Shown: piece after piece, positions 3,681 to 35,657 of the stretch
How the letters are laid out: each line of letters starts with the position of its first letter
Position numbering within the stretch: the first letter of the stretch is position 1
Position numbers and translations under genes: made by a program
The notes under the pieces: generated by a model
Seen by the model: only the letters and a program-made list of their open reading frames with translations
The model's database searches: none
Told to the model about the DNA's origin: nothing
Source: a virus
Taxonomy: Duplodnaviria; Heunggongvirae; Uroviricota; Caudoviricetes
Length of the DNA stretch: 35,657 nt
IMG/VR virus record: IMGVR_UViG_2541047892_000001
Reading direction: 5' to 3' (one strand)

Positions 3681-4018
3681 AGCAGTTCCTGAGTACGGGG
3701 TTGTCCGTCTGAGCCTTTCCAGCTCACCCGGAGCGTAAGATGTTCGCCGTCGACGGCGGGTTTAACCGACATAAGCTGGCAGCGGGGTTCCCAGCGCCTG
3801 ATGGCATCGACGGATTCGCGAACCACATGCGGAATGGCCCGGTCGACAGGCCAGTCGATATAAAGGTGCAGATTGCTGCCGAACTCTGGGCGATGCGGGT
3901 CGCTGCCGCGGGGAGTCCGCAGGATGATCTGGATGGACTGCTGGATATCATCCAGCCCCCGGACGATTTCGCCGGGAGCCTGCAGAGCCGGTTGCCAGAA
4001 TACTGAGGTCGTTTTCAT
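3671..4018 (-). CDS. Baseplate protein, gpW / gp25 lysozyme-like (Mu gp46)
   Basis: 115 aa; LDDIQQSIQIILRTPRGSDPHRPEFGS matches the GPW/gp25 family motif. Confidence 0.85.
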   Translation of the reverse strand: MKTTSVFWQPALQAPGEIVRGLDDIQQSIQIILRTPRGSDPHRPEFGSNLHLYIDWPVDRAIPHVVRESVDAIRRWEPRCQLMSVKPAVDGEHLTLRVSWKGSDGQPRTQELLWR

Positions 4019-4089
4019 GGGGGCAGTATTGCCCCAGTAAGAAAAGAACGATATTAAAGGGATTTAAAAAGGAGTTATTGATACGTTTG

Positions 4090-10609: not shown

Positions 10610-10775
10610 TCAGTGGTTCGTCCCAGTCTGCCGGGTCTTTGTTGATTTTGCGCACCTGCTTCAGGTCTTTTACTGTCAGGCGTTTCAGTTCAATCTGTTC
10701 AATTCTGGTACCTGCAGCAGTGGTGAAAGGATAAGACAGCGTAAAAGTATCGGACTGGGTCTGTGACATGATCAT
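10434..10775 (-). CDS. Tail assembly chaperone (gpE-like)
   Basis: 113 aa directly upstream of the tape measure; AAGGAG precedes the second ATG (10769); overlapped by an extension ORF in another frame. Confidence 0.7.
   Translation of the reverse strand: MIMSQTQSDTFTLSYPFTTAAGTRIEQIELKRLTVKDLKQVRKINKDPADWDEPLIARSTGILPEDLDNMDLADYMELQKRFQKITGLGKSDKNTDAGAGPAGEMVQVSAGGD
10437..10445 (-). other. Putative programmed frameshift site (G-rich run before the chaperone stop codon)
   Basis: Minus-strand ...GCC GGG GGA GAT TGA; the only homopolymeric run in the E/E' overlap close to the stop. Confidence 0.35.
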
Positions 10776-10866
10776 ACTCCTTTGTAAATTCAGAGCAGTA
10801 TGTCTGGCGGTGGACGTGACGGATATTAAAGGAGATTAAGAAGAAGGGGCCGGAGCCCCTGTGATG

Positions 10867-11150: not shown

Positions 11151-11672
11151 TCAGCCCCCGATATTGATCCGATAGTCAGTCAGTTGATCAACGCCACCGA
11201 CGCGGAAGATGTTGGCCAGATAGTCCAGTTGCAGCAACTCTTCACCATCCAGTACCTGTCTGATATACGTGCAGGTGAAGCTACTGGAGAACTCGGCGTT
11301 CTCGTGCTGTTTAAACGTCCCCAGCGGGTTCTTCTTGAACATAATTGTCAGGAAGGTGACCAGCGGGATTTCGTCGATCAGCCCCTGCGAGCTGTAGCGC
11401 TGGACGCTGGAGCGACACTGCAGCGCCAGCGACTTGTACGGGTTCGCGGCAGACAGCATCGCATCGCGGTAAAAGCTGTTCCATTTGATTTCGCCTTCCA
11501 GTTTGTCAAAACCAGCCGGGAGTTCCACCTTACCCACCATCCCCAGTGCCTTGTGTTCCTGCATAATCATGGAGACATCGGGGAGTTTAACCTCCTCAGC
11601 CCGTCCCAGCAGGTTAGTACCATCCAGATAGATGTTGGCATTCGTGATTCGGTTTATCTCAATCTTTGACAT
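11151..11672 (-). CDS. Major tail tube protein (P2 FII / Mu M-like)
   Basis: 173 aa; N-terminal MSKIEINRITNANIYLDGTNLLGRAEEVKLP is typical of contractile-tail tube proteins; immediately follows the sheath. Confidence 0.9.
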   Translation of the reverse strand: MSKIEINRITNANIYLDGTNLLGRAEEVKLPDVSMIMQEHKALGMVGKVELPAGFDKLEGEIKWNSFYRDAMLSAANPYKSLALQCRSSVQRYSSQGLIDEIPLVTFLTIMFKKNPLGTFKQHENAEFSSSFTCTYIRQVLDGEELLQLDYLANIFRVGGVDQLTDYRINIGG

Positions 11673-15567: not shown

Positions 15568-16683
15568 TTACAGGCAGCGTGCGACAGCAGCCTCATAGCT
15601 GATGCCTTCTTTTTTGGACAGGGCCACTGCTTTCTGATGCAGGGCCAGACGCTCAGGATCGGCTTCCGCAAACTCCGCCACATCCACCTTCACCGTGTCG
15701 CCGACACGCTCCTTTGTGGCCTGTTCGGCGAAATTCATCACCGGCTCCCCGTCGGAGAGCAATGAACGGAAGGCGGTGGCCAGCGGCGTGCGGCTTTCCC
15801 CCTCAGCAAACTCCACCGGCTTGTCGCCACCGGCGACGGCATCCAGCAGGGCAACCACCACGGAGGAGGCGCGGGGAGCCAGACGCCCCTCTGCGACCAG
15901 TTTTTCTGCAAAGGCCACATTGTCCTTATGCAGTTGCTCCTGTCTGGCCTGTGCATCACGCGCATCGCGATCAGCAGCCTGCTGCTTCAGGCGGCGGTTC
16001 TCCTCCTGAAGGGCTTCAATCTCTTCTTTTGTCATCGATGATTCCTCGTTACTTGCGGAAGACGGCACCTGGCCTGTCTCACTGAATTGTGCACCTGCTG
16101 CATCCTGCGACGGTGTGTCGCGGTACGCCTCTTCGCGCAGATTGTTGAGCTGCCATTCCGGCAGGACTTTTTCTGCTTCGTCCAGACTGAAGCGGGCGAT
16201 CAGAAAATCGCGCAGCTTTCCCCACAGGGAGGCATTCGTGATGGCCTGCCAGTCGGCGAACTCCACCACACCTTCTTCCTGCTCACTGAAGGACACCTGT
16301 TTCAGCCCCTTGACGGAAGGTGGCTGTGCCCCGAGAAAGCCCACATGGCGCAGGTAGAGCACGCCGGGCTTCGGATTGGACGGTGAATCCGGGAGGTAGA
16401 AAGAGGCGGACACTTTTTTGAATCGTCCGTCGGTGACCATCTCAGCAAACTGCGGGTCCAACTGGGCAGGCTCTGCCATCAGATCGACGCCGCTGAGCGA
16501 CAGGGCTTTCACCCAGCCCCACGCCGGGTCTTCCGTTCTGGGATGACCAATCACGAGTGGTGCTTCATGGACGGACGGGTCATAGGCTTTCACGCAGGCG
16601 GCAAGATCGTCTGGCGTGAACGGCAGTTTTTTGCCGTGCATATCGGTATGAGTACCGGCTTTAAAAATGTGAATGGCTGACAT
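15568..16683 (-). CDS. Head maturation protease / scaffold (Mu gpI family)
   Basis: 371 aa; acidic coiled-coil middle (EEIEALQEENRRLKQQAADRDARDAQ) and gpI-like N-terminus. Confidence 0.82.
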   Translation of the reverse strand: MSAIHIFKAGTHTDMHGKKLPFTPDDLAACVKAYDPSVHEAPLVIGHPRTEDPAWGWVKALSLSGVDLMAEPAQLDPQFAEMVTDGRFKKVSASFYLPDSPSNPKPGVLYLRHVGFLGAQPPSVKGLKQVSFSEQEEGVVEFADWQAITNASLWGKLRDFLIARFSLDEAEKVLPEWQLNNLREEAYRDTPSQDAAGAQFSETGQVPSSASNEESSMTKEEIEALQEENRRLKQQAADRDARDAQARQEQLHKDNVAFAEKLVAEGRLAPRASSVVVALLDAVAGGDKPVEFAEGESRTPLATAFRSLLSDGEPVMNFAEQATKERVGDTVKVDVAEFAEADPERLALHQKAVALSKKEGISYEAAVARCL

Positions 16684-16897
16684 TTTGCTGTCCCGCGTTA
16701 TGTTGTCGGAGACAGTTTGTGAGAAATGCAGGCCCGGCGATTTTAATCTGCTTTAGAAAACATCAGGGGAGAAGGACAGGGAAAGCAATGCGGTGAACCG
16801 GAAGCGGTTATAAAACAGAGGCTGTAAAGCCTTTATAAAGGTAATACAGCCCCTCATTCGCTGGCAATGATAAATCACCCGCCTGAAGAGAGAAAAC

Positions 16898-18180: not shown

Positions 18181-19654
18181 GCAGACGCCCCCAGATATTT
18201 GCCACAAAGAGAATGCGGGCCAGCCGCTCCTGCAGATCGTCCGTGTTCATCTGAGGGTAGAGCTCCGCCAGTTCGCCCAGCAGCTCAGACGGGTTAACCC
18301 CGTTTTCGACCCGCCTGAACAGAGGTGCCAGGACGGGTTCCAGCGTGCCATTTAACACACCTCCGTTCATCAGAATGTCCAGCGCGTCGTCAAGCTGCTG
18401 TTGTGCATCATGATCGGCGCTTATCGCCTCGGCAAACTCCGCAGGCACTGCCCCGTCCGCAACCGGTGCATCAGAGAGGTCAATATCCCCCTCCTGCAGC
18501 TGGTACTCCCGCATGAAGTACTGCGGGGTCAGGCGTAGTCCCGCGCGGGTGAGTTTTTCGTCGCGGGTGGCACGGGTGTCATCAATGGCCTCCTGTTCCC
18601 ACATGGCCCAGACCGGACACGGCACATCGCCGAAGTTCAGGGTGACCACCGTTCTGATGACCTGATTCACTGCCGCCTGAATGATGTCCGCATCCGCATC
18701 GCGGATATCAGCCGTCACCTCCAGCCCGGCCTGTGCAGAGGCCTTGTTACTGTTCGCTTCCGTGGTCTGATTCTGACCGAGTAATGCAATGGAGATCTCA
18801 CTGCGTGACAGCGTGATCAGCTCGCGGAATACCTCGCTGCTGTCCGCCTTGCCATCCGCGGCTTTGAGTTCAATGCTGCTGTCATCGGGGATGGCGGCCA
18901 CAGCGTCCTCCACCATCTGCTCCATGGAGTCCAGCAGTTTTTCAATCTCTGCATCATTTGCACCCCTCGGGTGCTTACCGATCACCCACGGGGAGCCAAA
19001 CTTTTCGGCAAAGCGGAGCCAGAATTTCATCCCGCCTTTCTTGAAGGCGACCGGCCAGAAGCACATGGACAGGTCCGGGAAACCGTAAGGATTGTCATAC
19101 GAGGCATCCTGTGCCGGCACCACGAATTTTGACGGTGACAGCAGCTCACCCTCCACACCCGCATCACGCGCCCGGAAGCGCAGGCAGTTGTCCGTATCAA
19201 ACTGAAACCACTCAGGCGGTTTGCCGACAATATCCGTCACCGCCCACGCCCTGACCGAACGGCCCCACATGATTTCACAGGGCTGATACCCGTAGAGCAC
19301 GGCATCGCTCATCTCACCGATGATGCGGGACAGATCCAGATCGTCGAGCATGTCGCGGATGAAACGGAAGACCCGGGCAGAAGCGTGACCGCGCTCCAGT
19401 CCACGCTCCAGCGATTTGAGCGCTGCTTTACGTCTGCGGATACAGCCTCCGACCAGCGGGTCGGTGCGCAGTTCGCGGTAGATACGGATATCCCGTCCCT
19501 GAGCCTTGAGAATGGGATCAGGATTGGGCAGATACATGCCCAGTCCGTAAAAGTCGATCGCGCGGCTGCGGGAGGCAATCTGCGCGGTCAGTGATTTCTG
19601 AGGCTCAGAAAAAGCAACAAATTCATCGGGTGAAACCCAGATACCCCTCGCCAT
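18161..19654 (-). CDS. Portal protein (Mu gpH family)
   Basis: 497 aa; directly downstream of the large terminase with overlapping stop/start. Confidence 0.88.
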   Translation of the reverse strand: MARGIWVSPDEFVAFSEPQKSLTAQIASRSRAIDFYGLGMYLPNPDPILKAQGRDIRIYRELRTDPLVGGCIRRRKAALKSLERGLERGHASARVFRFIRDMLDDLDLSRIIGEMSDAVLYGYQPCEIMWGRSVRAWAVTDIVGKPPEWFQFDTDNCLRFRARDAGVEGELLSPSKFVVPAQDASYDNPYGFPDLSMCFWPVAFKKGGMKFWLRFAEKFGSPWVIGKHPRGANDAEIEKLLDSMEQMVEDAVAAIPDDSSIELKAADGKADSSEVFRELITLSRSEISIALLGQNQTTEANSNKASAQAGLEVTADIRDADADIIQAAVNQVIRTVVTLNFGDVPCPVWAMWEQEAIDDTRATRDEKLTRAGLRLTPQYFMREYQLQEGDIDLSDAPVADGAVPAEFAEAISADHDAQQQLDDALDILMNGGVLNGTLEPVLAPLFRRVENGVNPSELLGELAELYPQMNTDDLQERLARILFVANIWGRLHERDNG

Positions 19655-23075: not shown

Positions 23076-23793
23076 AACTGCTGCCTCCCCATGTGAGATA
23101 TCGCGGTGCCAGTTCGCGCAGGATGCGCTGCGGATAATGGCGGTTCTCCCGCCAGCTGGCCGCATTGCGTCCGGCATTCACCGTGGCGACATGTCCGAAC
23201 CAGCGGGTGCTGTCCAGACCTTTCTGTGATGCAAGCCGCCTGTCCCGTTGTACCCAGCCCAGACCACCGTTATAGCCTGACAGTGTCATGGCCATACGCT
23301 CGCAGTCGTTGGCGGCGCTGACGCGCTGCCACAGCCAGCGGTCATAGCTGACCAGCGCCCGGATGGCCCATGCCGGATTAAACGGCTCACGGCTGTTAAG
23401 TCCCGGCATCAGCTGACTTATCCAGTCGGCAGTGGCAGGCATGAACTGCGCCAGTCCCTGAGCACCAGCCGGCGAGACCGCATCAGGTCGCCAGCCGCTT
23501 TCCTGATGCAGTTGCGCGGCGAAATCTGCCACCGGCGCAGACAGTCCCCATTCAAGCCGGGCATTACGGATCACATCATCGCGATACTGCAGCGCAGCCT
23601 GCGGAGGCTGCGCTGCGCGGGCCTGACTGAAGAAGCCACCACACCAGAGCAGCCAGACAATCACCAGGTTGCCAGCAAGCTGCCACCAGAAGCTGTATTT
23701 ATCGTTACGTGGTTCGCCGTGTCTGATGGCGGTTACGCCCAGACCAAAGGCGAACAGAATAATGAGGGTGATTTGAGGCCAGTTCATGGTCAC
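23059..23793 (-). CDS. Endolysin, lytic transglycosylase (SLT domain) with hydrophobic N-terminal segments
   Basis: 244 aa; SLT catalytic region QLHQESGWRPDAVSPAGAQGLAQFMPATADW; two hydrophobic stretches in the first 60 aa; start overlaps the holin stop (ATGA). Confidence 0.82.
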   Translation of the reverse strand: MTMNWPQITLIILFAFGLGVTAIRHGEPRNDKYSFWWQLAGNLVIVWLLWCGGFFSQARAAQPPQAALQYRDDVIRNARLEWGLSAPVADFAAQLHQESGWRPDAVSPAGAQGLAQFMPATADWISQLMPGLNSREPFNPAWAIRALVSYDRWLWQRVSAANDCERMAMTLSGYNGGLGWVQRDRRLASQKGLDSTRWFGHVATVNAGRNAASWRENRHYPQRILRELAPRYLTWGGSSCVASG

Positions 23794-24140
23794 AGTCCTG
23801 TTGCCACAGCCAGACAGACCGCTGCAACAATCAGTGCACGGCGGATTAACGCAGCAGAAAATACAAGGTGAAGGCCGGTCTGCACAGGGAAACGCCCTTC
23901 AGCCATCAGCCTGTCTTCATGTTTCAGGTACTGACCGGGACGGGCTTTGGGGAAGAGCGAACGGTCAAGCCAGTAACCCAGCACTGCTGCCAGCGTGATG
24001 AGTGCCAGCTTGTAGATCACAACAGGCAACTGCTGTGGCGAGACCAGAGCGATGGTGCCCAGCAACAGCACTGAGGTCAGCAGCCAGCCGCTGAGGCGAG
24101 GTTTTTTAACAGGGGGAATGAATTTTTTCAGGCTTTTCAT
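23790..24140 (-). CDS. Putative holin (three predicted TM segments)
   Basis: Three hydrophobic helices; AAGGAG 6 nt upstream of the ATG at 24140 (alternative ATG at 24170); first gene of the lysis cassette. Confidence 0.55.
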   Translation of the reverse strand: MKSLKKFIPPVKKPRLSGWLLTSVLLLGTIALVSPQQLPVVIYKLALITLAAVLGYWLDRSLFPKARPGQYLKHEDRLMAEGRFPVQTGLHLVFSAALIRRALIVAAVCLAVATGL

Positions 24141-24203
24141 GTGTGTCTCCTTGTTTGGTGGAGACAGCATCACAAATGTGGCGGGATACGGATTTTAAAG
24201 CGC

Positions 24204-24243
24204 GTTATAAGTGTTCGCAGAGGGAAGCGACCAGAATGGTCGC
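24204..24243 (-). promoter_or_regulatory. Candidate activator-dependent late promoter for the lysis operon
   Basis: Minus-strand TATAAC (24209..24204) lies 17 nt downstream of a perfect dyad GCGACC-n5-GGTCGC (24227..24243) occupying the -35 position, about 65 nt upstream of the holin start. Confidence 0.4.
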
Positions 24244-24270
24244 ACACAAAACATAGGGGAGGCAAGCACA

Positions 24271-24594
24271 ATGACTGAACCGAAACAGTCTGGTATTAAA
24301 AAAGGGTTCCTCTTTGGGAGCAGAATCGGAGAGCAGAATAAAACTTACACGCTAAGCTTGGATGCATGTTGTCCAACCGAAGCGATTATAGAGCTGAAAA
24401 ACGTTCTGGTTGCACTTGAAGAGAGAAGAAGTCATTTCGCCAGCGGAGAAAACAACGTCATGCTAATTGGCGATGTGGCGGCGACATCACGATATAAAAC
24501 CGCACCTAATCCTGCGATTCAGTTATCCTTCGACCAACGAATACTGGAAGCGGAATCAGCAGTTCCCAGAACGGTTCGTCCTCACCAGTCTTAA
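24271..24594 (+). CDS. Hypothetical small protein (107 aa), divergent from the lysis operon
   Basis: ATG at 24271 preceded by GGGGAGG with 8-nt spacing; 3' end overlaps the convergent 191-aa gene by 89 nt, so one of the two may be miscalled. Confidence 0.3.
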   Translation: MTEPKQSGIKKGFLFGSRIGEQNKTYTLSLDACCPTEAIIELKNVLVALEERRSHFASGENNVMLIGDVAATSRYKTAPNPAIQLSFDQRILEAESAVPRTVRPHQS

Positions 24595-25081
24595 CTGGGG
24601 CTGCTTCACCCGACCAGTAAAGCCAAGCACGGTGATACAGTTCCAGCACCGGGCAATCACTGTTCAATAACCTCATATCTCCGCGATGCACCTGCTCATT
24701 TGTGATGACTTCATATATCGGTGCCGTTCTTATTTCGTCTTCGCCTCTCTCATCAGCCAGTAATTCCCTGAACTTCCTGACTTCACTCAGATGCTGACAG
24801 GCAAACAGTGACTGATAGCGGGAAGGTTTATCAGGAAAATGGCTACGGCGAACTAACTCAAACACCAGACCGACCAGCAGACTTCTGCTGATTCCACTGT
24901 CATCTTCCATTTTAGGGCCGGGGTTATAGAGATAGTTATACCCGTGACTCGAAAGGCCATTGGGATACATCTGATGAAGAAAAGCGGCCAGTTCTGGCAT
25001 TTCAGGCTCGTATTTTCCGGTAATTACATGACAAGGCGAAGGCAGACGACTAGCGGAATCAAGTGTGTAATACGTTCCCAT
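24506..25081 (-). CDS. Hypothetical accessory protein (191 aa), no recognisable family
   Basis: ORF in the accessory region between lysis genes and repressor; separated from the upstream cassette by a 409-nt non-coding gap. Confidence 0.5.
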   Translation of the reverse strand: MGTYYTLDSASRLPSPCHVITGKYEPEMPELAAFLHQMYPNGLSSHGYNYLYNPGPKMEDDSGISRSLLVGLVFELVRRSHFPDKPSRYQSLFACQHLSEVRKFRELLADERGEDEIRTAPIYEVITNEQVHRGDMRLLNSDCPVLELYHRAWLYWSGEAAPVKTGEDEPFWELLIPLPVFVGRRITESQD

Positions 25082-25196
25082 TCAGAAAACAATCCTTATC
25101 GAACAAACACTGCACGTAGGTAATGCATCCAGTAAATCGCGTTAATAGAAATCATGTATCTCAAAACTTCACTCTGAACTCTGACAGTGAAAGAAC

Positions 25197-25228
25197 GACC
25201 AGCCCGGTACCCGAACTCCGGGCTGGTC
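25197..25228 (-). terminator. Perfect 11-bp stem / 10-nt loop hairpin; possible terminator of the repressor-linked cassette
   Basis: GACCAGCCCGG-tacccgaact-CCGGGCTGGTC; on the minus strand it is followed by GUUCUUUCA, a weak U-tract. Confidence 0.35.
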
Positions 25229-25490
25229 ATCGCCCCACAGGAATGCACTGTGAGCCGACCGAGGTTCAGTCAGTCTCGCGAGACCAGACTAGCCTGCCAT
25301 ATTTTTTATAATTATAAAAGGGTTACAGATTATGAAAATGCAGACATTCCCCATCGCTCCATGGATTGGTTGTAAACGCCGCCATGCCAGACATATTCTG
25401 GCCGATGTTTCCTAGCACGCACGAATATGAGGCAACTGACGAGAATAAATGATGCGTCAGAATGAACCGTCGACACCGTGATTTCAGGTT

Positions 25491-26122: not shown

Positions 26123-27109
26123 CTATTTCAAAATATAACGATATTTACTATCTGGAGTGTTTTGTTGGTCAAGTAATAGAGCTCTACATGGGGCGGTCAA
26201 AACACGGGCATAACGACCATCGGGGTTTATGTTGATGTAACAAGTTTTCCCTTTAACACCATAAGATTCAGGTATTATTGCCTGTGTAGACACCGTGAAT
26301 TTAAGGGTATGCCAGCCCGATTTTTGCTTGTAGCTTGAAACCGAATGGAAATCATCTGAGTACTTATTTAACCCTGGAAACATGCTGCGTAATGCTGGGA
26401 TGGAATCTTCTATTATTTTGTCGTTGGTTTTAATGTTAAAAACGCTGGTTTCAGTAGATGCTACTGCTTTAGCATTTCCCCATTTACCAGCGAACACAAT
26501 CATTCCCACGAAAAATATTGCGACAAGAACTAACGCTCCCCCCAACACTACTACATGAGGCTTCCGGCTTCTGGTTGGTACAGTCGCGACTGATTTTGCC
26601 CCGCTGTCCGATGGAGGTGATAGAGTTTTACTCTCATCACGAATATTCAGCAGATCATCAAAATAACCAAACACAGCCTGCAACTGCTCTTTGTCCAGGC
26701 CTTTAAGATGGGTTGTACCGAAATGCTTCAGACAGTATCTGTCACGGTCAAGACGATACCTAGGGTCAGTAAGCACCATTATTTTGCTGACCAGAAGATT
26801 ACAGTCCTTCATATTCTGGATCTGTTGTGCATATCTCTGGAGGATCTCAACCGCACCATGATAATCAGCCGCAGTCATTTCATTAACTGTTTTGGTATTA
26901 AGTTTCGTGTGGATCGTCATCCATAGTTCGCGCTTACTTTCCCCCAGATCAACCAATTCATCCATCAATCTGTGTAAATCGCGTTTTTGCAGCAACGAAA
27001 TTGGTTGCTGGGCAGAGGGAAGTATGTCAGCAGAATAGTTATGAATGGTAACATCACCGCTGACAACGTTACCCACATCTCCGTTAACTGTTTGCTTCTC
27101 TTTACTCAT
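26123..27109 (-). CDS. Hypothetical bitopic membrane protein (328 aa): N-terminal Gly-rich motif, about 190-aa cytoplasmic domain, one TM, about 110-aa C-terminal domain
   Basis: TM helix HVVVLGGALVLVAIFFVGMIVFAG; start codon overlaps the repressor stop (ATGA); AT-rich. Confidence 0.65.
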   Translation of the reverse strand: MSKEKQTVNGDVGNVVSGDVTIHNYSADILPSAQQPISLLQKRDLHRLMDELVDLGESKRELWMTIHTKLNTKTVNEMTAADYHGAVEILQRYAQQIQNMKDCNLLVSKIMVLTDPRYRLDRDRYCLKHFGTTHLKGLDKEQLQAVFGYFDDLLNIRDESKTLSPPSDSGAKSVATVPTRSRKPHVVVLGGALVLVAIFFVGMIVFAGKWGNAKAVASTETSVFNIKTNDKIIEDSIPALRSMFPGLNKYSDDFHSVSSYKQKSGWHTLKFTVSTQAIIPESYGVKGKTCYININPDGRYARVLTAPCRALLLDQQNTPDSKYRYILK

Positions 27110-27567
27110 TTTCTCTTTGTATTTTTGTTCATTATTCCACCTGTTCCTATGGTTACGTTACCTTTGATAACATTCCCCAGAACATCTCCATGAATAACCT
27201 GTTCCGCCCGTTCTCTGGAGGAGCCAGTCGTCAATGCCGACAAAACTGAACCTTTGACTTGTAACGGTGCTTGCCGGTAGTGCTGAAGTAACTCCATTTC
27301 ATCACGTGATAAAGTTATACCTGATGATTCCCCAGTAAGAATGAACTGTACGTTGGCCCCAATTCTTGCAAAGGCTGCAAGTAACTCACCTCCGGGAACT
27401 GCAACCCCTCGTTCATATTTCCCCCACATTTCTCTTGAAACGCCACAAAGGGCTGCTACTTCAGCCTGCTTGAGTGATAACCGCGAACGCTCAGCTTTGA
27501 ACCGCGACGCGCAAAGAGAATCAAAATTCACATAAACCTCATTGACAATGAGAACAATGGTTCTCAT
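27106..27567 (-). CDS. XRE-family HTH transcriptional repressor (putative prophage repressor)
   Basis: HTH_XRE signature LKQAEVAALCGVSREMWGKYERG; divergent from the early operon; alternative GTG start at 27531 with a GAGG site would leave the operator and early promoter outside the coding region. Confidence 0.8.
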   Translation of the reverse strand: MRTIVLIVNEVYVNFDSLCASRFKAERSRLSLKQAEVAALCGVSREMWGKYERGVAVPGGELLAAFARIGANVQFILTGESSGITLSRDEMELLQHYRQAPLQVKGSVLSALTTGSSRERAEQVIHGDVLGNVIKGNVTIGTGGIMNKNTKRK

Positions 27568-27617: not shown

Positions 27618-27806
27618 ATGACTTCCGAACAAGTTAAAACTCTCTTCCGTCAGCGTGGTATCACGTTTACCCGCTGGGCCGAAGAACACGGCTACAGCCG
27701 CAATGAGGTCTATCGTGTTCTCAATGGACAGACCAAAGCTCGTTACGGCAAAGCCCATGAAATTGCCGTAAAGCTGGGATTAAAACCCACGTCAAATGCG
27801 GCATAA
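27618..27806 (+). CDS. Small Ner/Cro-like HTH DNA-binding protein (first early gene)
   Basis: 62 aa; AAGGAG 6 nt upstream; layout resembles Ner/Nlp-type regulators (weak, from memory). Confidence 0.65.
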   Translation: MTSEQVKTLFRQRGITFTRWAEEHGYSRNEVYRVLNGQTKARYGKAHEIAVKLGLKPTSNAA

Positions 27807-27858
27807 ATTTTCCATATATGCAACAGGTTATCACATATTGCAAAAATGGAAATGTGAC

Positions 27859-28167
27859 ATGAGTAAAGTAAATATCTCCAGTTCCGGGACCCGCATCCTA
27901 CGTGTACTCAAAGCTCTACGCGGTCACTCTCTGAACGGTGTTTCTAACGGTGAACTGGCATCAGCCCTAGATGAGTCCCCGGCGAACATCAATCGAGCAC
28001 TCAATACCCTTATCGAAGAGGGACTAGCCCTGAAACTGGAAAACGGGCGTTTCGCACCAGGCATCCAGTTGCTGCAGATCGCCATGGCCCACAGTAACGA
28101 GATGGCACGTGCACAGGATCGCATTAACGAAATCAACCAACGTGTTATTTCAGGTAGTCGTTTGTAA
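27859..28167 (+). CDS. Winged-helix DNA-binding protein
   Basis: ILRVLKALRGH...GVSNGELASALDESPANINRALNTLIEEGL is HTH-like; start uncertain (ATG 27859, or 27796 overlapping the previous gene). Confidence 0.55.
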   Translation: MSKVNISSSGTRILRVLKALRGHSLNGVSNGELASALDESPANINRALNTLIEEGLALKLENGRFAPGIQLLQIAMAHSNEMARAQDRINEINQRVISGSRL

Positions 28168-29092: not shown

Positions 29093-30862
29093 ATGAATGC
29101 TGCCCTGACTGAACGACTGGTTTATGTCGCCCGCGCGGCACGTGACGCGGGGCATGGTAAACGCGGTGCAATATACGACGCTGCCTGTGCTGAACTTGGC
29201 ATGTCCCGCGCCACTCTGCTGCGCAGGCTGAAGGAGGTATCTGTGACTGATAAACGCAAAAAACGCGCCGATGCCGGGCGCAGCGCCCTGACCCGCGACG
29301 AAGCCGCGCTGATATCTGCCACACTGCGTGAGGCCACCCGCAAGAACGGTAAGCGTCTCTATTCCATCGCAGATGCAGTGGAAACCCTGCGGGCTAACGG
29401 CTTTATCTCCGCAGGCAGAACAGATGAAACCACCGGTGAGTTTTTCCCGTTGTCCGAAGATGCCATCAGTCGTGCCTTGCGTAACTATGGCCTGCACCCG
29501 GAACAACTGGATGCCCCTGCGCCGCATACCGAAGTGGCCAGTCTGCATCCCAATCACGTCTGGCAGATTGATGCCTCGCTCTGCACGCTTTACTACCTGA
29601 GCAATGGACACAAAGGGCTGCAGGTGATGGACAGCGCGAAGTTCTACAAGAATAAACCCGCTAACCTTGCCCGTATCGCCAGTGACCGCGTGTGGAGTTA
29701 CGAGATTACCGACCATGCCAGCGGCTGGATTTACGTTGAGTATGTGACGGGTGCGGAATCCGGTGAGAACCTGTGTTCTGTGCTTATCAACGCCATGCAG
29801 GAGCGTGGCGGCGCAGACGTGCTGCACGGCGTGCCGAAAATACTCTATCTCGACCCCGGCTCGGCAAACACCGCGGGTATGACGAAAAACATGTGCCGCT
29901 CACTGGGCATCGACCTGATAGCGCACAAGCCGCATAACGCCCGCGCCACCGGACAGGTGGAAAAGGCGCGTGACATTATCGAACGCAAGCTGGAGCCGGG
30001 TCTGAAATTCCGGCCGGTTCACAGTCTGGAAGAACTCAACGCGCTGGCCGCGAAATGGCGTAGCCACTTTAACGCAACAGCTGTTCACAGCCGCCACGGT
30101 AAAACCCGCACGGATATCTGGCTGAAGATTACTGCTGAGCAGCTGAAAAAAGCGCCTTCCGTTGAGGTATGCCGTGAACTGGCTGTGGCGACACCAGAAC
30201 TCCGCAAAGTCACGCCAAAACTTCGTGTCTCGTTCCGGGGCACTGAATTTGACGTATCAACGGTACCGGGCGTACTGGTTGGTGAAAAACTGATGATTAC
30301 CCGTAACCCATGGCGCAGCGATGTGGCACAGGTGGTTCTGACCGGTGAGGACGGCCACGAGACGTTCTTCCTGGTCGAAGAGGTCAGAAAGAACGAGTTT
30401 GGCTTTGCTGAAGGCGCGGCGGTATTTGGCGAAAGTTACAAAGCCCTGCCGGAAACACCGGCACAGACGGCGGCAAAAGAAACCGAAGCGCTGGTCACCG
30501 GTACAGACAACGCCGCAGATGCAGCTGCCGCACGCAAGGCGAAGGCGCTGCCGTTCGGCGGGCGGCTTGACCCGTATAAACATATTGATGACGCCACACT
30601 TCCGGCCTGTATACCGAAGCGCGGTCAGGTCTCTGATGTACGCAGACCGCGCACTGAACAACGTCCCATGACTCATGTGGAGGCCGCGAAAGCCCTGCGC
30701 GATAAGTTCAGCGCCGACGGCCTTACCTGGACGCCGGAACATTACCGCCAGTTAACGGCACAGTACCCGGACGGCGTACCGGAAGCCGCACTGGATGAAG
30801 TAATGGCCACGCTGACCACGCCGGCCCGCAGCAGCGTTATCAGCATTGTTAACGGCAACTGA
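29093..30862 (+). CDS. DDE (rve/integrase-core type) transposase
   Basis: 589 aa; candidate catalytic residues in HVWQIDAS, LYLDPGSANT and a downstream Glu; GGAGG 8 nt upstream; followed by an AAA+ ATPase; no resemblance to the MuA N-terminus. Confidence 0.8.
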   Translation: MNAALTERLVYVARAARDAGHGKRGAIYDAACAELGMSRATLLRRLKEVSVTDKRKKRADAGRSALTRDEAALISATLREATRKNGKRLYSIADAVETLRANGFISAGRTDETTGEFFPLSEDAISRALRNYGLHPEQLDAPAPHTEVASLHPNHVWQIDASLCTLYYLSNGHKGLQVMDSAKFYKNKPANLARIASDRVWSYEITDHASGWIYVEYVTGAESGENLCSVLINAMQERGGADVLHGVPKILYLDPGSANTAGMTKNMCRSLGIDLIAHKPHNARATGQVEKARDIIERKLEPGLKFRPVHSLEELNALAAKWRSHFNATAVHSRHGKTRTDIWLKITAEQLKKAPSVEVCRELAVATPELRKVTPKLRVSFRGTEFDVSTVPGVLVGEKLMITRNPWRSDVAQVVLTGEDGHETFFLVEEVRKNEFGFAEGAAVFGESYKALPETPAQTAAKETEALVTGTDNAADAAAARKAKALPFGGRLDPYKHIDDATLPACIPKRGQVSDVRRPRTEQRPMTHVEAAKALRDKFSADGLTWTPEHYRQLTAQYPDGVPEAALDEVMATLTTPARSSVISIVNGN

Positions 30863-34854: not shown

Positions 34855-35296
34855 ACAACGTCTTATCCAGCTCATTCATATTGCCCGTAATGAACTGGGT
34901 ATGGATGAAGACACCTACCGCCAGATGTTACAGGGGCTGACCGGTAAAGCCTCAACCAAAGGAATGGATACCACACAACTAAACTGCGTGCTGGAATCCA
35001 TGAAAAGGAAAGGCTTTCGCGTTAAGCCTGCCGGAAAAGCCAGCTCCGGTTTACCGCTGGATAACCATCCGCAGTCCAGGAAAATCCGTGCGCTATGGAT
35101 TGAAATGGCTGCTGCCGGCATTGTTCGTGACCGTTCAGAAAATGCATTAGCGCGGTGGATCAAGCGGGAAACGGGCATCAGCGCCCTGCGCTGGCTCAAT
35201 ACTGAACAGGCAAGCAGTGTTATTGAGAAACTGAAGAAGTGGCAGCGCAGAGCTGCGGGAGTAAAACATGAGCGACCTGAATCAGTTTCGAAGTAA
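34844..35296 (+). CDS. GemA / Mu gp16-like protein
   Basis: LIQLIHIARNELGMDEDTYRQMLQGLTGKASTKGM matches the GemA-type N-terminus; AAGGAG 5 nt upstream of ATG 34844. Confidence 0.7.
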   Translation: MMTKQRLIQLIHIARNELGMDEDTYRQMLQGLTGKASTKGMDTTQLNCVLESMKRKGFRVKPAGKASSGLPLDNHPQSRKIRALWIEMAAAGIVRDRSENALARWIKRETGISALRWLNTEQASSVIEKLKKWQRRAAGVKHERPESVSK

Positions 35297-35657
35297 AGGG
35301 CCGGAACTCCTGGTGGAACTGGCACAGCATACCTCTGAGACCGTTCGCGAGATTATTGATATTGAGCCCGCAATTGCCGACCAGATTGGTCAGGCTGTCG
35401 CGAACCGAATGATGCAGGTCTGGGGCGGGCAAAACGTTTATTTCCCAATGGGCATGGTATGGAAGGTCAGTCAGCGCGACCGGGAAATCTTCAGGGAGTT
35501 TAACGGACGCAACCACCACGAACTGGCCCGCAAATTTGGTGTTTCGCTTCAGTGGGTCTACAGCGTGGTTAAGCGGGTAAGAAAAGAAGAACTGGATCGG
35601 ATGCAGGGCAAGCTATTTGCTGATGAACCCGATGCAGATACGGAGAAAAAAGAGTAA
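35268..35657 (+). CDS. mor: Mor/C-family transcriptional activator of late or middle genes
   Basis: 129 aa; GGQNVYFPMG...FNGRNHHELARKFGVSLQWVYSVVKR is the Mor/C HTH region; GGGAG ribosome-binding site; stop codon is the last 3 nt of the window. Confidence 0.85.
   Translation: MSDLNQFRSKGPELLVELAQHTSETVREIIDIEPAIADQIGQAVANRMMQVWGGQNVYFPMGMVWKVSQRDREIFREFNGRNHHELARKFGVSLQWVYSVVKRVRKEELDRMQGKLFADEPDADTEKKE

Follow-up and report, generated by a model that had tools for sequence, protein, structure and literature searches.

The stretch of DNA considered here, called the window, is the complete 35,657-nucleotide sequence of IMG/VR virus record IMGVR_UViG_2541047892_000001 (Caudoviricetes), a BcepMu-like transposable prophage of E. 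coli (genus Bcepmuvirus). Over the 2.6 kb tested it does not differ from the prophages of E. coli B7A and other strains, and Klebsiella phage KP12 is about 90% identical to it. On the minus strand lie the late genes, running from that of the holin to those of the tail, and on the plus strand the early genes, which begin at about 27.6 kb and end with the last gene of the prophage, encoding a Mor-family activator. The subject is the gap upstream of the holin gene, where a preliminary description had proposed an activator-dependent late promoter with a perfect G/C-rich dyad in place of the -35 element and TATAAC as the -10. The kind of promoter appears to stand, in that it lacks a -35 and is probably dependent on a Mor-family protein, but the elements had been misplaced: the region is best read as a bidirectional, Mor-dependent promoter of the type of Pm in phage Mu, predicted from sequence comparison to belong to a four-promoter late regulon with a single activator. 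The features on which this reading draws are the following.

23790..24140, minus strand: holin gene, first of the lysis/late operon (PF13272, E=1.1e-40; ATG at 24140; 'putative holin' in the E. coli B7A annotation)
24144..24166, minus strand: complementary arms TGTCTCC (24166..24160) and GGAGACA (24150..24144, with the Shine-Dalgarno (SD) sequence of the holin gene inside); the predicted start lies just past the 5' arm
24159, minus strand: predicted late start, an A, to within 1-2 nt either way, placed from the hexamer position; the holin ATG follows 19 nt downstream, and the box centre is then at about -43
24166..24171, minus strand: proposed late -10 GATGCT, followed by G and preceded by TGT (extended -10), 22 bp downstream of the box
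24194..24209, no strand assigned: proposed Mor box of the lysis promoter, TATAA-CGCGCT-TTAAA in minus-strand orientation, an imperfect dyad of 16 bp whose arms are rich in A/T and whose 6-bp spacer is rich in G/C
24227..24243, no strand assigned: dyad of the preliminary description, arms variable, core CCATTCTG kept
24232..24237, plus strand: proposed divergent -10 CAGAAT, followed by G, in the centre of that palindrome and 22 bp from the box, the exact mirror of the late -10
24244, plus strand: predicted divergent start, an A, placed from the hexamer position
24271..24594, plus strand: unannotated open reading frame of 107 codons (ORF107) with a strong SD, GGGGAGG, the proposed product of the divergent promoter
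27106..27567 and 27796..28167: helix-turn-helix (HTH) regulators (phage c/Ner-type considered)
35268..35657, plus strand: Mor-family activator gene, last early gene (PF08765, E=1.3e-43), at the place given in the preliminary description

The upstream regions of about 120 loci with relatives of the holin gene, taken from viral contigs and from one genome per species, were oriented and compared. Upstream of about 24211 they split into some 27 mutually unrelated sequence classes, which places a mosaic junction at about that position. The sole conserved upstream block is CACTn-[T/A]TAAC-GCnn-TTTAAAATCC (window 24213..24190), seen across about 95 distinct holin-upstream regions and kept in every class from E. 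coli to Pectobacterium, Dickeya, Xenorhabdus and Serratia, with a variant of it in Burkholderia and Pandoraea. Exactly 20 nt after the 18-nt block of the box, or 22 bp after the 16-bp site, stands a hexamer of the form nAnnnT followed by G, which occurs as GATGCT, CATGCT, AAAACT, AATGAT, CACACT, GATCAT or CAAGAT; in an alignment of 33 distinct sequences its A2, its T6 and the following G are invariant. The offset between box and hexamer is equal in the relatives from E. coli, Pectobacterium, Xenorhabdus and Burkholderia/Pandoraea. At the window's own lysis promoter, P1, the hexamer alignment and a scan of 23700..25300 for the sigma-70 consensus, which found no full promoter, together give a recognisable -10 without a usable -35. 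No Rfam family matched anywhere in the window at the gathering score, nor within 24000..24700 at E<=1. The conserved upstream core was also read, by eye, as a site for integration host factor; this was rejected, the window version being off consensus.

Box and hexamer together reproduce the arrangement of Mu Pm. In the Mu literature, the Mor site of Pm is described as two 5-bp inverted repeats around a G/C-rich 6-bp spacer, 16 bp in all, lying at -51 to -36 with its centre at -43.5, in place of a -35 element; the C sites at the Mu late promoters are related to it and are also centred at -43.5. Because positions -57 to -52 of Pm are given as GTAAAC (Table 3, PMC4390567), the +1 can be fixed in the Mu sequence, and in that register the Mor dyad is AGTAA-AGCCGG-TTAAT, followed after 22 bp by TATCCT and a G. 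A 16-bp dyad with 5-bp arms and a G/C-rich 6-bp spacer is found in TATAA-CGCGCT-TTAAA and not in the dyad of the preliminary description, and the 22-bp gap between site and hexamer at five promoters of the window, where the +1 is predicted only, equals that of Pm. The TATAAC hexamer forms the left arm of this box, and from the match to the arm and spacer design of Pm and to its 22-bp gap it is therefore assigned to a probable activator site. It had been proposed as the -10; in most lineages it reads ATTAAC, CTTAAC, CGTAAC or TCTAAC, and the A at position 2, which a -10 needs, is kept in 3 of the approximately 27 classes and replaced by T, G or C in most of the others, so that it is not conserved, which speaks against the proposal.

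With Pm, then, the locus has in common a phage-encoded Mor-family activator, a 16-bp imperfect dyad, a gap of 22 bp, a weak -10 of the form nAnnnT followed by G, and no -35. The counterpart of the Mor site in BcepMu is cTAAA-GCCGAT-TAAAa. Measured against the Mu Mor site in the register fixed above, the BcepMu box is identical at 12/16 positions, the box of a second window promoter, P2, at 11/16 and that of P1 at 9/16; for the E. coli-type boxes the identity is modest (9-11/16). The resemblance is one of design, spacing and a BcepMu-type core, not of the whole sequence. The Mor-family protein of the window shares 31% identity with Mu Mor, 37% with Mu C and 54% with BcepMu gp01, and no Mor/C paralogue was found in the window besides the gene at 35268..35657. 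Its recognition helix is nearly identical to that of gp01, which fits the sharing of a box by E. coli and Burkholderia phages. Near its C-terminus it carries QGKLF (residues 113-117; 35604-35618, plus strand), where gp01 has QRDLF and Mu C has QPDLF. For its activity Mu C has recently been reported to depend on the beta sliding clamp, through a clamp-binding motif (PMC12867686), and the QGKLF of the window protein resembles that motif in sequence.

A weight matrix built solely from the boxes of other lineages was used to scan the window. Its five top matches, in order of score, were these.

24209..24192, minus strand: P1 box, 25.3 bits (top match), with GATGCT followed by G; ahead of the holin gene
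16742..16757 (matrix match 16757..16740), minus strand: P2 box TCTAAAGCAGATTAAA, 20.2 bits; ahead of the head protease gene, ATG at 16683
4053..4068 (matrix match 4068..4051), minus strand: P3 box TTTAAATCCCTTTAAT, 16.1 bits; ahead of the baseplate wedge gene
24194..24211, plus strand: P1 box reversed, 15.0 bits, with CAGAAT followed by G
10825..10840 (matrix match 10840..10823), minus strand: P4 box CTTAATCTCCTTTAAT, 13.3 bits; ahead of the tail assembly gene, ATG at 10775

The hexamer nAnnnT and its following G stand at the required offset in all five of these matches, in neither of the two other matches of at least 12 bits and in no weaker listed match; at a given offset, nAnnnTG would be expected by chance in 1/64 of cases. 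At P2 the hexamer is CAAACT (16719..16714, minus strand), with a predicted start at G16707; at P3 it is AATACT (4030..4025, minus strand), set within GGGGC...GCCCC; and at P4 it is CATACT (10802..10797, minus strand), each followed by G. In the Mu genome, taken as a real-sequence control, five matches reached at least 12 bits and none of them had the hexamer. The same five box-plus-hexamer sites are present in KP12, and in relatives of P2 and P3 the box and hexamer are kept while the flanks have diverged. The late strand of BcepMu has two copies of the 16-mer TAAAGCCGATTAAAAG, where 0.06 would be expected by chance, one upstream of the holin gene gp21 and one upstream of gp32, the equivalent of Mu I; a third site precedes gp49, and the hexamers at the three sites (CAAGAT, GATGAT and CAACAT) share the same offset. 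Recurrence at co-regulated promoters is thus a property of the box with its hexamer and not of the dyad.

All four minus-strand boxes of the window lie in gaps that head late gene blocks. Because three further box-plus-hexamer units, besides that of the holin gene, head such blocks, the late region looks like four transcription units and not one long operon; the late region of Mu, with Plys, P_I and P_P, is likewise made up of several units. Between a virion morphogenesis gene and the P2 box lies a terminator-like hairpin, GGCTGTA...TACAGCC followed by TCTGTTTTAT (16810-16851, minus strand), and an equivalent hairpin occupies the same place in BcepMu (18731-18766). Farther upstream of P1, a decayed copy of the box, CTATTAACGCGATTTACT, stands just after another terminator-like hairpin (window 25131-25148 and 25201-25217, minus strand); in other lineages the hairpin of this region sits directly upstream of the holin promoter. 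Decayed box and hairpin together look like the scar of a cargo insertion, comprising the DUF2441 gene and ORF107, that duplicated the promoter region.

The box of P1 also has a hexamer on its far side. At the mirror position (offset 0 or -1), CAnnAT is found in 18 of 27 classes, against a chance of about 0.8% per class, as CATGAT, CAGTAT, CAGGAT, CAAGAT or CAGAAT in flanks that are otherwise unrelated. In at least eight of the classes with a mirror hexamer, mutually unrelated divergent genes have a start with a good SD at +37 to +42 from the hexamer; they encode a P-loop protein, small proteins and, in the window, ORF107, and in others a Dam methylase gene lies further on. The nine classes that lack the mirror hexamer, BcepMu included, have no such divergent gene. 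There is no mirror hexamer at P2 or P4, and P3 reversed has only TAAATT without a following G. On this correlation, a single Mor box serving two divergent promoters is the best model of the P1 region. In many relatives (loci L009, L064, L078, L110 and L119) the far-side gene is a Dam-type adenine methylase, whose leader is about 60-145 nt long and contains a hairpin in several classes; by analogy with Mu mom in its timing, this methylase would be a late-expressed DNA-modification gene. ORF107 is open and of the same length in eight variants (88-93% nucleotide identity) and had no Pfam or PHROG match. It is unannotated in RefSeq and in KP12, and it overlaps by 89 nt the 3' end of the convergent DUF2441 gene, which lies upstream of the holin gene on the same strand and ends at 24506.

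The placement of start codons bears on the register of the promoters. At P3 no SD is present and the start codon begins on the seventh nucleotide after the hexamer, both in the window and in 43 variants (on the eighth in one of them). In the window, transcription is predicted to begin on the first base of this codon, the A at 4018, giving a leaderless mRNA. The same 7-nt spacing from hexamer to start codon is found at the P3 site of BcepMu (gp49), and at the P_I of BcepMu and of a distant P_I relative the start codon is at the eighth nucleotide after the hexamer, again without an SD. Since start codons sit on the predicted +1 and lack an SD, these mRNAs probably have no leader. At all five window promoters a purine is found at the predicted +1. 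Candidate leaderless starts were noted at window 4016-4036 (minus strand) and, in BcepMu (L124), at 30806-30825 and 18844-18864; the annotated start of BcepMu gp32 at 18850 is probably wrong, as the ATG at 18862 matches the N-terminus of the window homologue.

At P1 the predicted start falls instead just past the 5' arm of a potential RNA hairpin. RNA that reads through from upstream folds with the SD of the holin gene paired (-14.5 kcal/mol), whereas RNA beginning at A24159 is unstructured (-0.5 kcal/mol), and the pairing of the arms is well conserved (85% of cells paired, compared with 37-60% when the partner is slid). The same layout, with complementarity between the stretch from -10 to +1 and the SD, recurs at P2 (16687-16714, minus strand), and Burkholderia-type promoters have different hairpins with the same effect. 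Gating of holin translation by the SD hairpin is plausible on these predictions, and the translation of the first gene of each operon may be coupled in this way to the site of initiation. In the transposase genes of IS10 and IS50, a fold-back RNA pairs the ribosome-binding site in read-through transcripts, whereas transcription from the promoter of the element itself begins within or beyond the 5' arm, so that translation is confined to the element's own transcripts. The protected gene here would be that of the holin and, at P2, that of the head protease, P3 reaching the same end through a leaderless start; the parallel is inferred from sequence.

From the conservation of the box, its fixed spacing, its recurrence and its correlation with divergent genes, we infer a mechanism in which the interval upstream of the holin gene, with its elements reassigned, gives Pm-type, activator-dependent and bidirectional control of the lysis/late operon, and as a whole model this is somewhat more probable than its alternatives taken together. 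The single Mor-family protein (35268..35657) would bind the 16-bp box TATAA-CGCGCT-TTAAA (24209..24194, minus strand), and sigma-70 RNA polymerase would use the weak -10 GATGCT (24171..24166) and start at about A24159, the box, centred at about -43, replacing the -35. The same box would drive a divergent promoter, whose mirror -10 CAGAAT (24232..24237, plus strand) would direct a start at about A24244 and the expression of ORF107. As the late start would fall just past the 5' arm of the hairpin, only transcripts from this promoter would allow translation of the holin, and read-through transcripts would keep the SD of its gene sequestered.

Several observations weigh against this reading. The matrix scores the Mor site of Mu Pm at 4.7 bits and its top Mu matches are intragenic; the matrix is for this reason taken to be group-specific and simple shuffles to understate the background, and the joint criterion of box plus hexamer, with Mu as control, was therefore used rather than the matrix score against shuffles alone. 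The proposed -10 hexamers match TATAAT at 3-4/6 positions, and the right arm of the box plus two bases (TAAAAT; TAATAT at P3 and P4) is itself a near-consensus -10. The lineage classes are partly dependent, some having a short core around the mirror hexamer in common. Between ORF107 and its KP12 counterpart there are about 21 amino-acid and 37 nucleotide changes, from which purifying selection is not clear, and the SD hairpin shows few compensatory changes, so that its structure is weakly supported. The differential RNA sequencing (dRNA-seq) tables for B. cenocepacia J2315, which cover BcepMu, hold no start at the late boxes, the BcepMu starts in them being confined to the early region and to two sites ahead of gp20 (11243 and 11210 in phage coordinates); because J2315 is a lysogen, this map of transcription start sites is no test of late promoters. 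In the literature on BcepMu-like phages we found no account of Mor-dependent promoters and no start, footprint or reporter data for them.

Because the right arm with its two adjoining bases approaches the -10 consensus, some probability stays with a different register, in which TAAAAT (24197..24192) is the -10, transcription starts at about 24185, the core of the upstream palindrome (at about -50) is the activator site and nAnnnT with its G is, for example, a pause or RNA element. TAAAAT or TAATAT matches TATAAT at 5/6 positions at all four window boxes, the upstream core CCAnnnTGG is conserved in position, and a start at 24185 would retain the SD hairpin in the late mRNA. However, several lineages, both BcepMu boxes included, have TAAAAG, and so lose the critical last T, and P2 and P4 have no upstream palindrome and P3 an ambiguous one, yet box and hexamer are kept in all of them. 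This register also leaves unaccounted for the match to the experimentally anchored geometry of Pm, the correlation with divergent genes, and the start codons that lie 7-8 nt after the downstream hexamer without an SD, which support the register with nAnnnT as the -10. It is accordingly thought unlikely, though it fares best of the rivals.

The dyad of the preliminary description was found where it had been placed. GCGACC-ATTCT-GGTCGC lies at 24243..24227 (minus strand), 17 nt (TTCCCTCTGCGAACACT, 24226..24210, minus strand) from TATAAC at 24209..24204, in the gap upstream of the holin gene (ATG at 24140) and so upstream of the lysis cassette, as described. It had been given on the opposite strand as the perfect inverted repeat GCGACC-AGAAT-GGTCGC, and such a repeat exists, but its true extent is 7+3+7 (GCGACCA-GAA-TGGTCGC) and not 6+5+6. 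Perfect inverted repeats of the 6+5+6 kind number 23 in the window, and 110 when loops of 3-9 nt are allowed, 2 of these 110 also having a -10-like hexamer (5/6) at 16-18 nt; the dyad alone is unremarkable and within chance expectation. A search for further copies, which had been suggested as a check, found no other match in the window with up to 2 mismatches, and the matches with 3 mismatches numbered 22 against 19.5 expected, so the dyad was rejected as a shared activator or operator site. Among the approximately 120 holin-relative loci, the perfect dyad is limited to the sublineage of the window itself: KP12 and related phages read GCCACC...GGCCGC, which differs by two changes, neither compensating for the other, other classes have arms such as GTACC...GGCCGA or CTATC...GACCGG, and in the PhiKM-type lineage the dyad is entirely absent. 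Within the window's lineage the hexamer core CCATTCTG is invariant and the arms vary among relatives, from which it is concluded, on this comparison, that the palindrome arms are not the recognition element.

Palindromes of this kind accompany the -10s more widely. Of 30 promoter instances, 8 have inverted repeats of at least 5 bp around the -10 hexamer, compared with about 1% in shuffled sequence, and the dyad is one such instance; the arms of these repeats are unrelated within one phage, which would favour a structural role over a protein site. Short G/C-rich palindromes with a -10 inside were seen at window 4019-4036 and 24227-24243 and, in BcepMu (L124), at 11512-11533 and 18844-18859. It is conceivable, but improbable, that the -10 lies in the loop of an extrudable G/C-rich hairpin or cruciform, which would form on supercoiled or transiently single-stranded replicating DNA and would present or mask the -10, linking late transcription to replication. 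If this were true, it would connect with the need of Mu C for the beta clamp and with the QGKLF motif of the window's Mor-family protein.

About as doubtful is the reading of the dyad as a small intrinsic terminator or pause hairpin on the holin strand, insulating the late operon from read-through out of the DUF2441 gene, a role that may coexist with a divergent -10. The minus-strand RNA forms a 7-bp hairpin of -11.1 kcal/mol, a same-strand gene ends upstream at 24506, and in other lineages palindromes at the same position are followed by T-rich runs such as CGCCATACTGGCG-TTTCCCCTTGTTTTG. The tail in the window, however, is UUCCCUCU, without a U-run, and a scan of 23700..25300 did not call the dyad as a terminator; conservation falls on the loop or core (CAnnAT) and not on the stem, where in a terminator the reverse would be expected, and many lineages have a separate, stronger terminator just upstream.

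The dyad could instead be the operator of a repressor, either a phage c/Ner-type HTH protein or a host factor, silencing the divergent or the late promoter in the lysogen. It is a perfect palindrome over a candidate -10, and HTH regulators are encoded at 27106..27567 and 27796..28167, but no related half-site occurs elsewhere in the window, the early control region included, the arms differ in close relatives whose regulators are near-identical, and, within one phage, the arms of the palindromes that surround the -10s of other promoters are unrelated, so this proposal has very little to recommend it. Scarcely credible is the model first put forward, with the dyad (24227..24243) as a Mor-family site replacing the -35, TATAAC as the -10 and a start at about 24197: its elements are present at the 17-nt spacing, as is a Mor-family gene, and 2 of the 110 inverted repeats of the window have a -10-like hexamer at such a spacing, but the arms vary or are missing across the approximately 27 lineages, differing even in phages about 90% identical, the window contains no other copy even though it has three or more late promoters besides this one, most lineages have lost the second-position A of TATAAC, and the dyad, with G/C-rich arms and an A/T spacer, reverses the composition of the Mu Mor and C sites on which it had been modelled and would be centred at about -38 rather than -43.5. 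The preliminary description had itself named absence of the dyad from homologous promoters as evidence against its reading; the dyad is absent from them, and by that standard the reading fails.

A bidirectional, Mor-dependent promoter at the box TATAA-CGCGCT-TTAAA would resemble the Mu late promoters as well as Pm. Plys, P_I, P_P and Pmom are likewise several promoters that share one activator site at -43.5, have -10s and lack a -35, and the boxes of the window occupy corresponding positions, ahead of the lysis genes, the head protease gene (Mu I) and the baseplate genes, P2 having the same position as P_I. The Mu C site (for example TTAT-GCCCCA-ATAA at Pmom) differs from the box found here. 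The Mor protein of Mu acts at Pm only; that promoter drives gene C, whose product switches on the late promoters in turn. Here, by contrast, there is a single Mor/C homologue and the box stands directly at the heads of four late operons, which points to a cascade of two stages and not the three of Mu. Also unlike Pm, one box appears to serve two divergent promoters. A DNA-modification gene under late control would be common to both systems, mom in Mu and, on the divergent side, a Dam methylase gene in many of the relatives here; unlike in Mu, transcription of the cargo or methylase gene would come from the far side of the shared activator site and not from a promoter of its own at the genome end.

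Prophages of the Bcepmuvirus type are common in E. coli, Salmonella, plant-pathogenic enterobacteria and Burkholderia. If the reading proposed here is true, their late regulon would follow a simple sequence rule, consisting of a 16-bp box with A/T arms, a gap of 22 bp and nAnnnT followed by G, and a single activator of the Mor/C family would run a two-stage cascade in place of the Mor-then-C relay of Mu. The activator site would fire both ways, its far side providing a late cargo slot occupied by a Dam methylase, a P-loop protein or small proteins, and the lethal holin gene would be guarded by a safety device of a kind that takes the form of a hairpin at P1 and P2 and of a leaderless start at P3.

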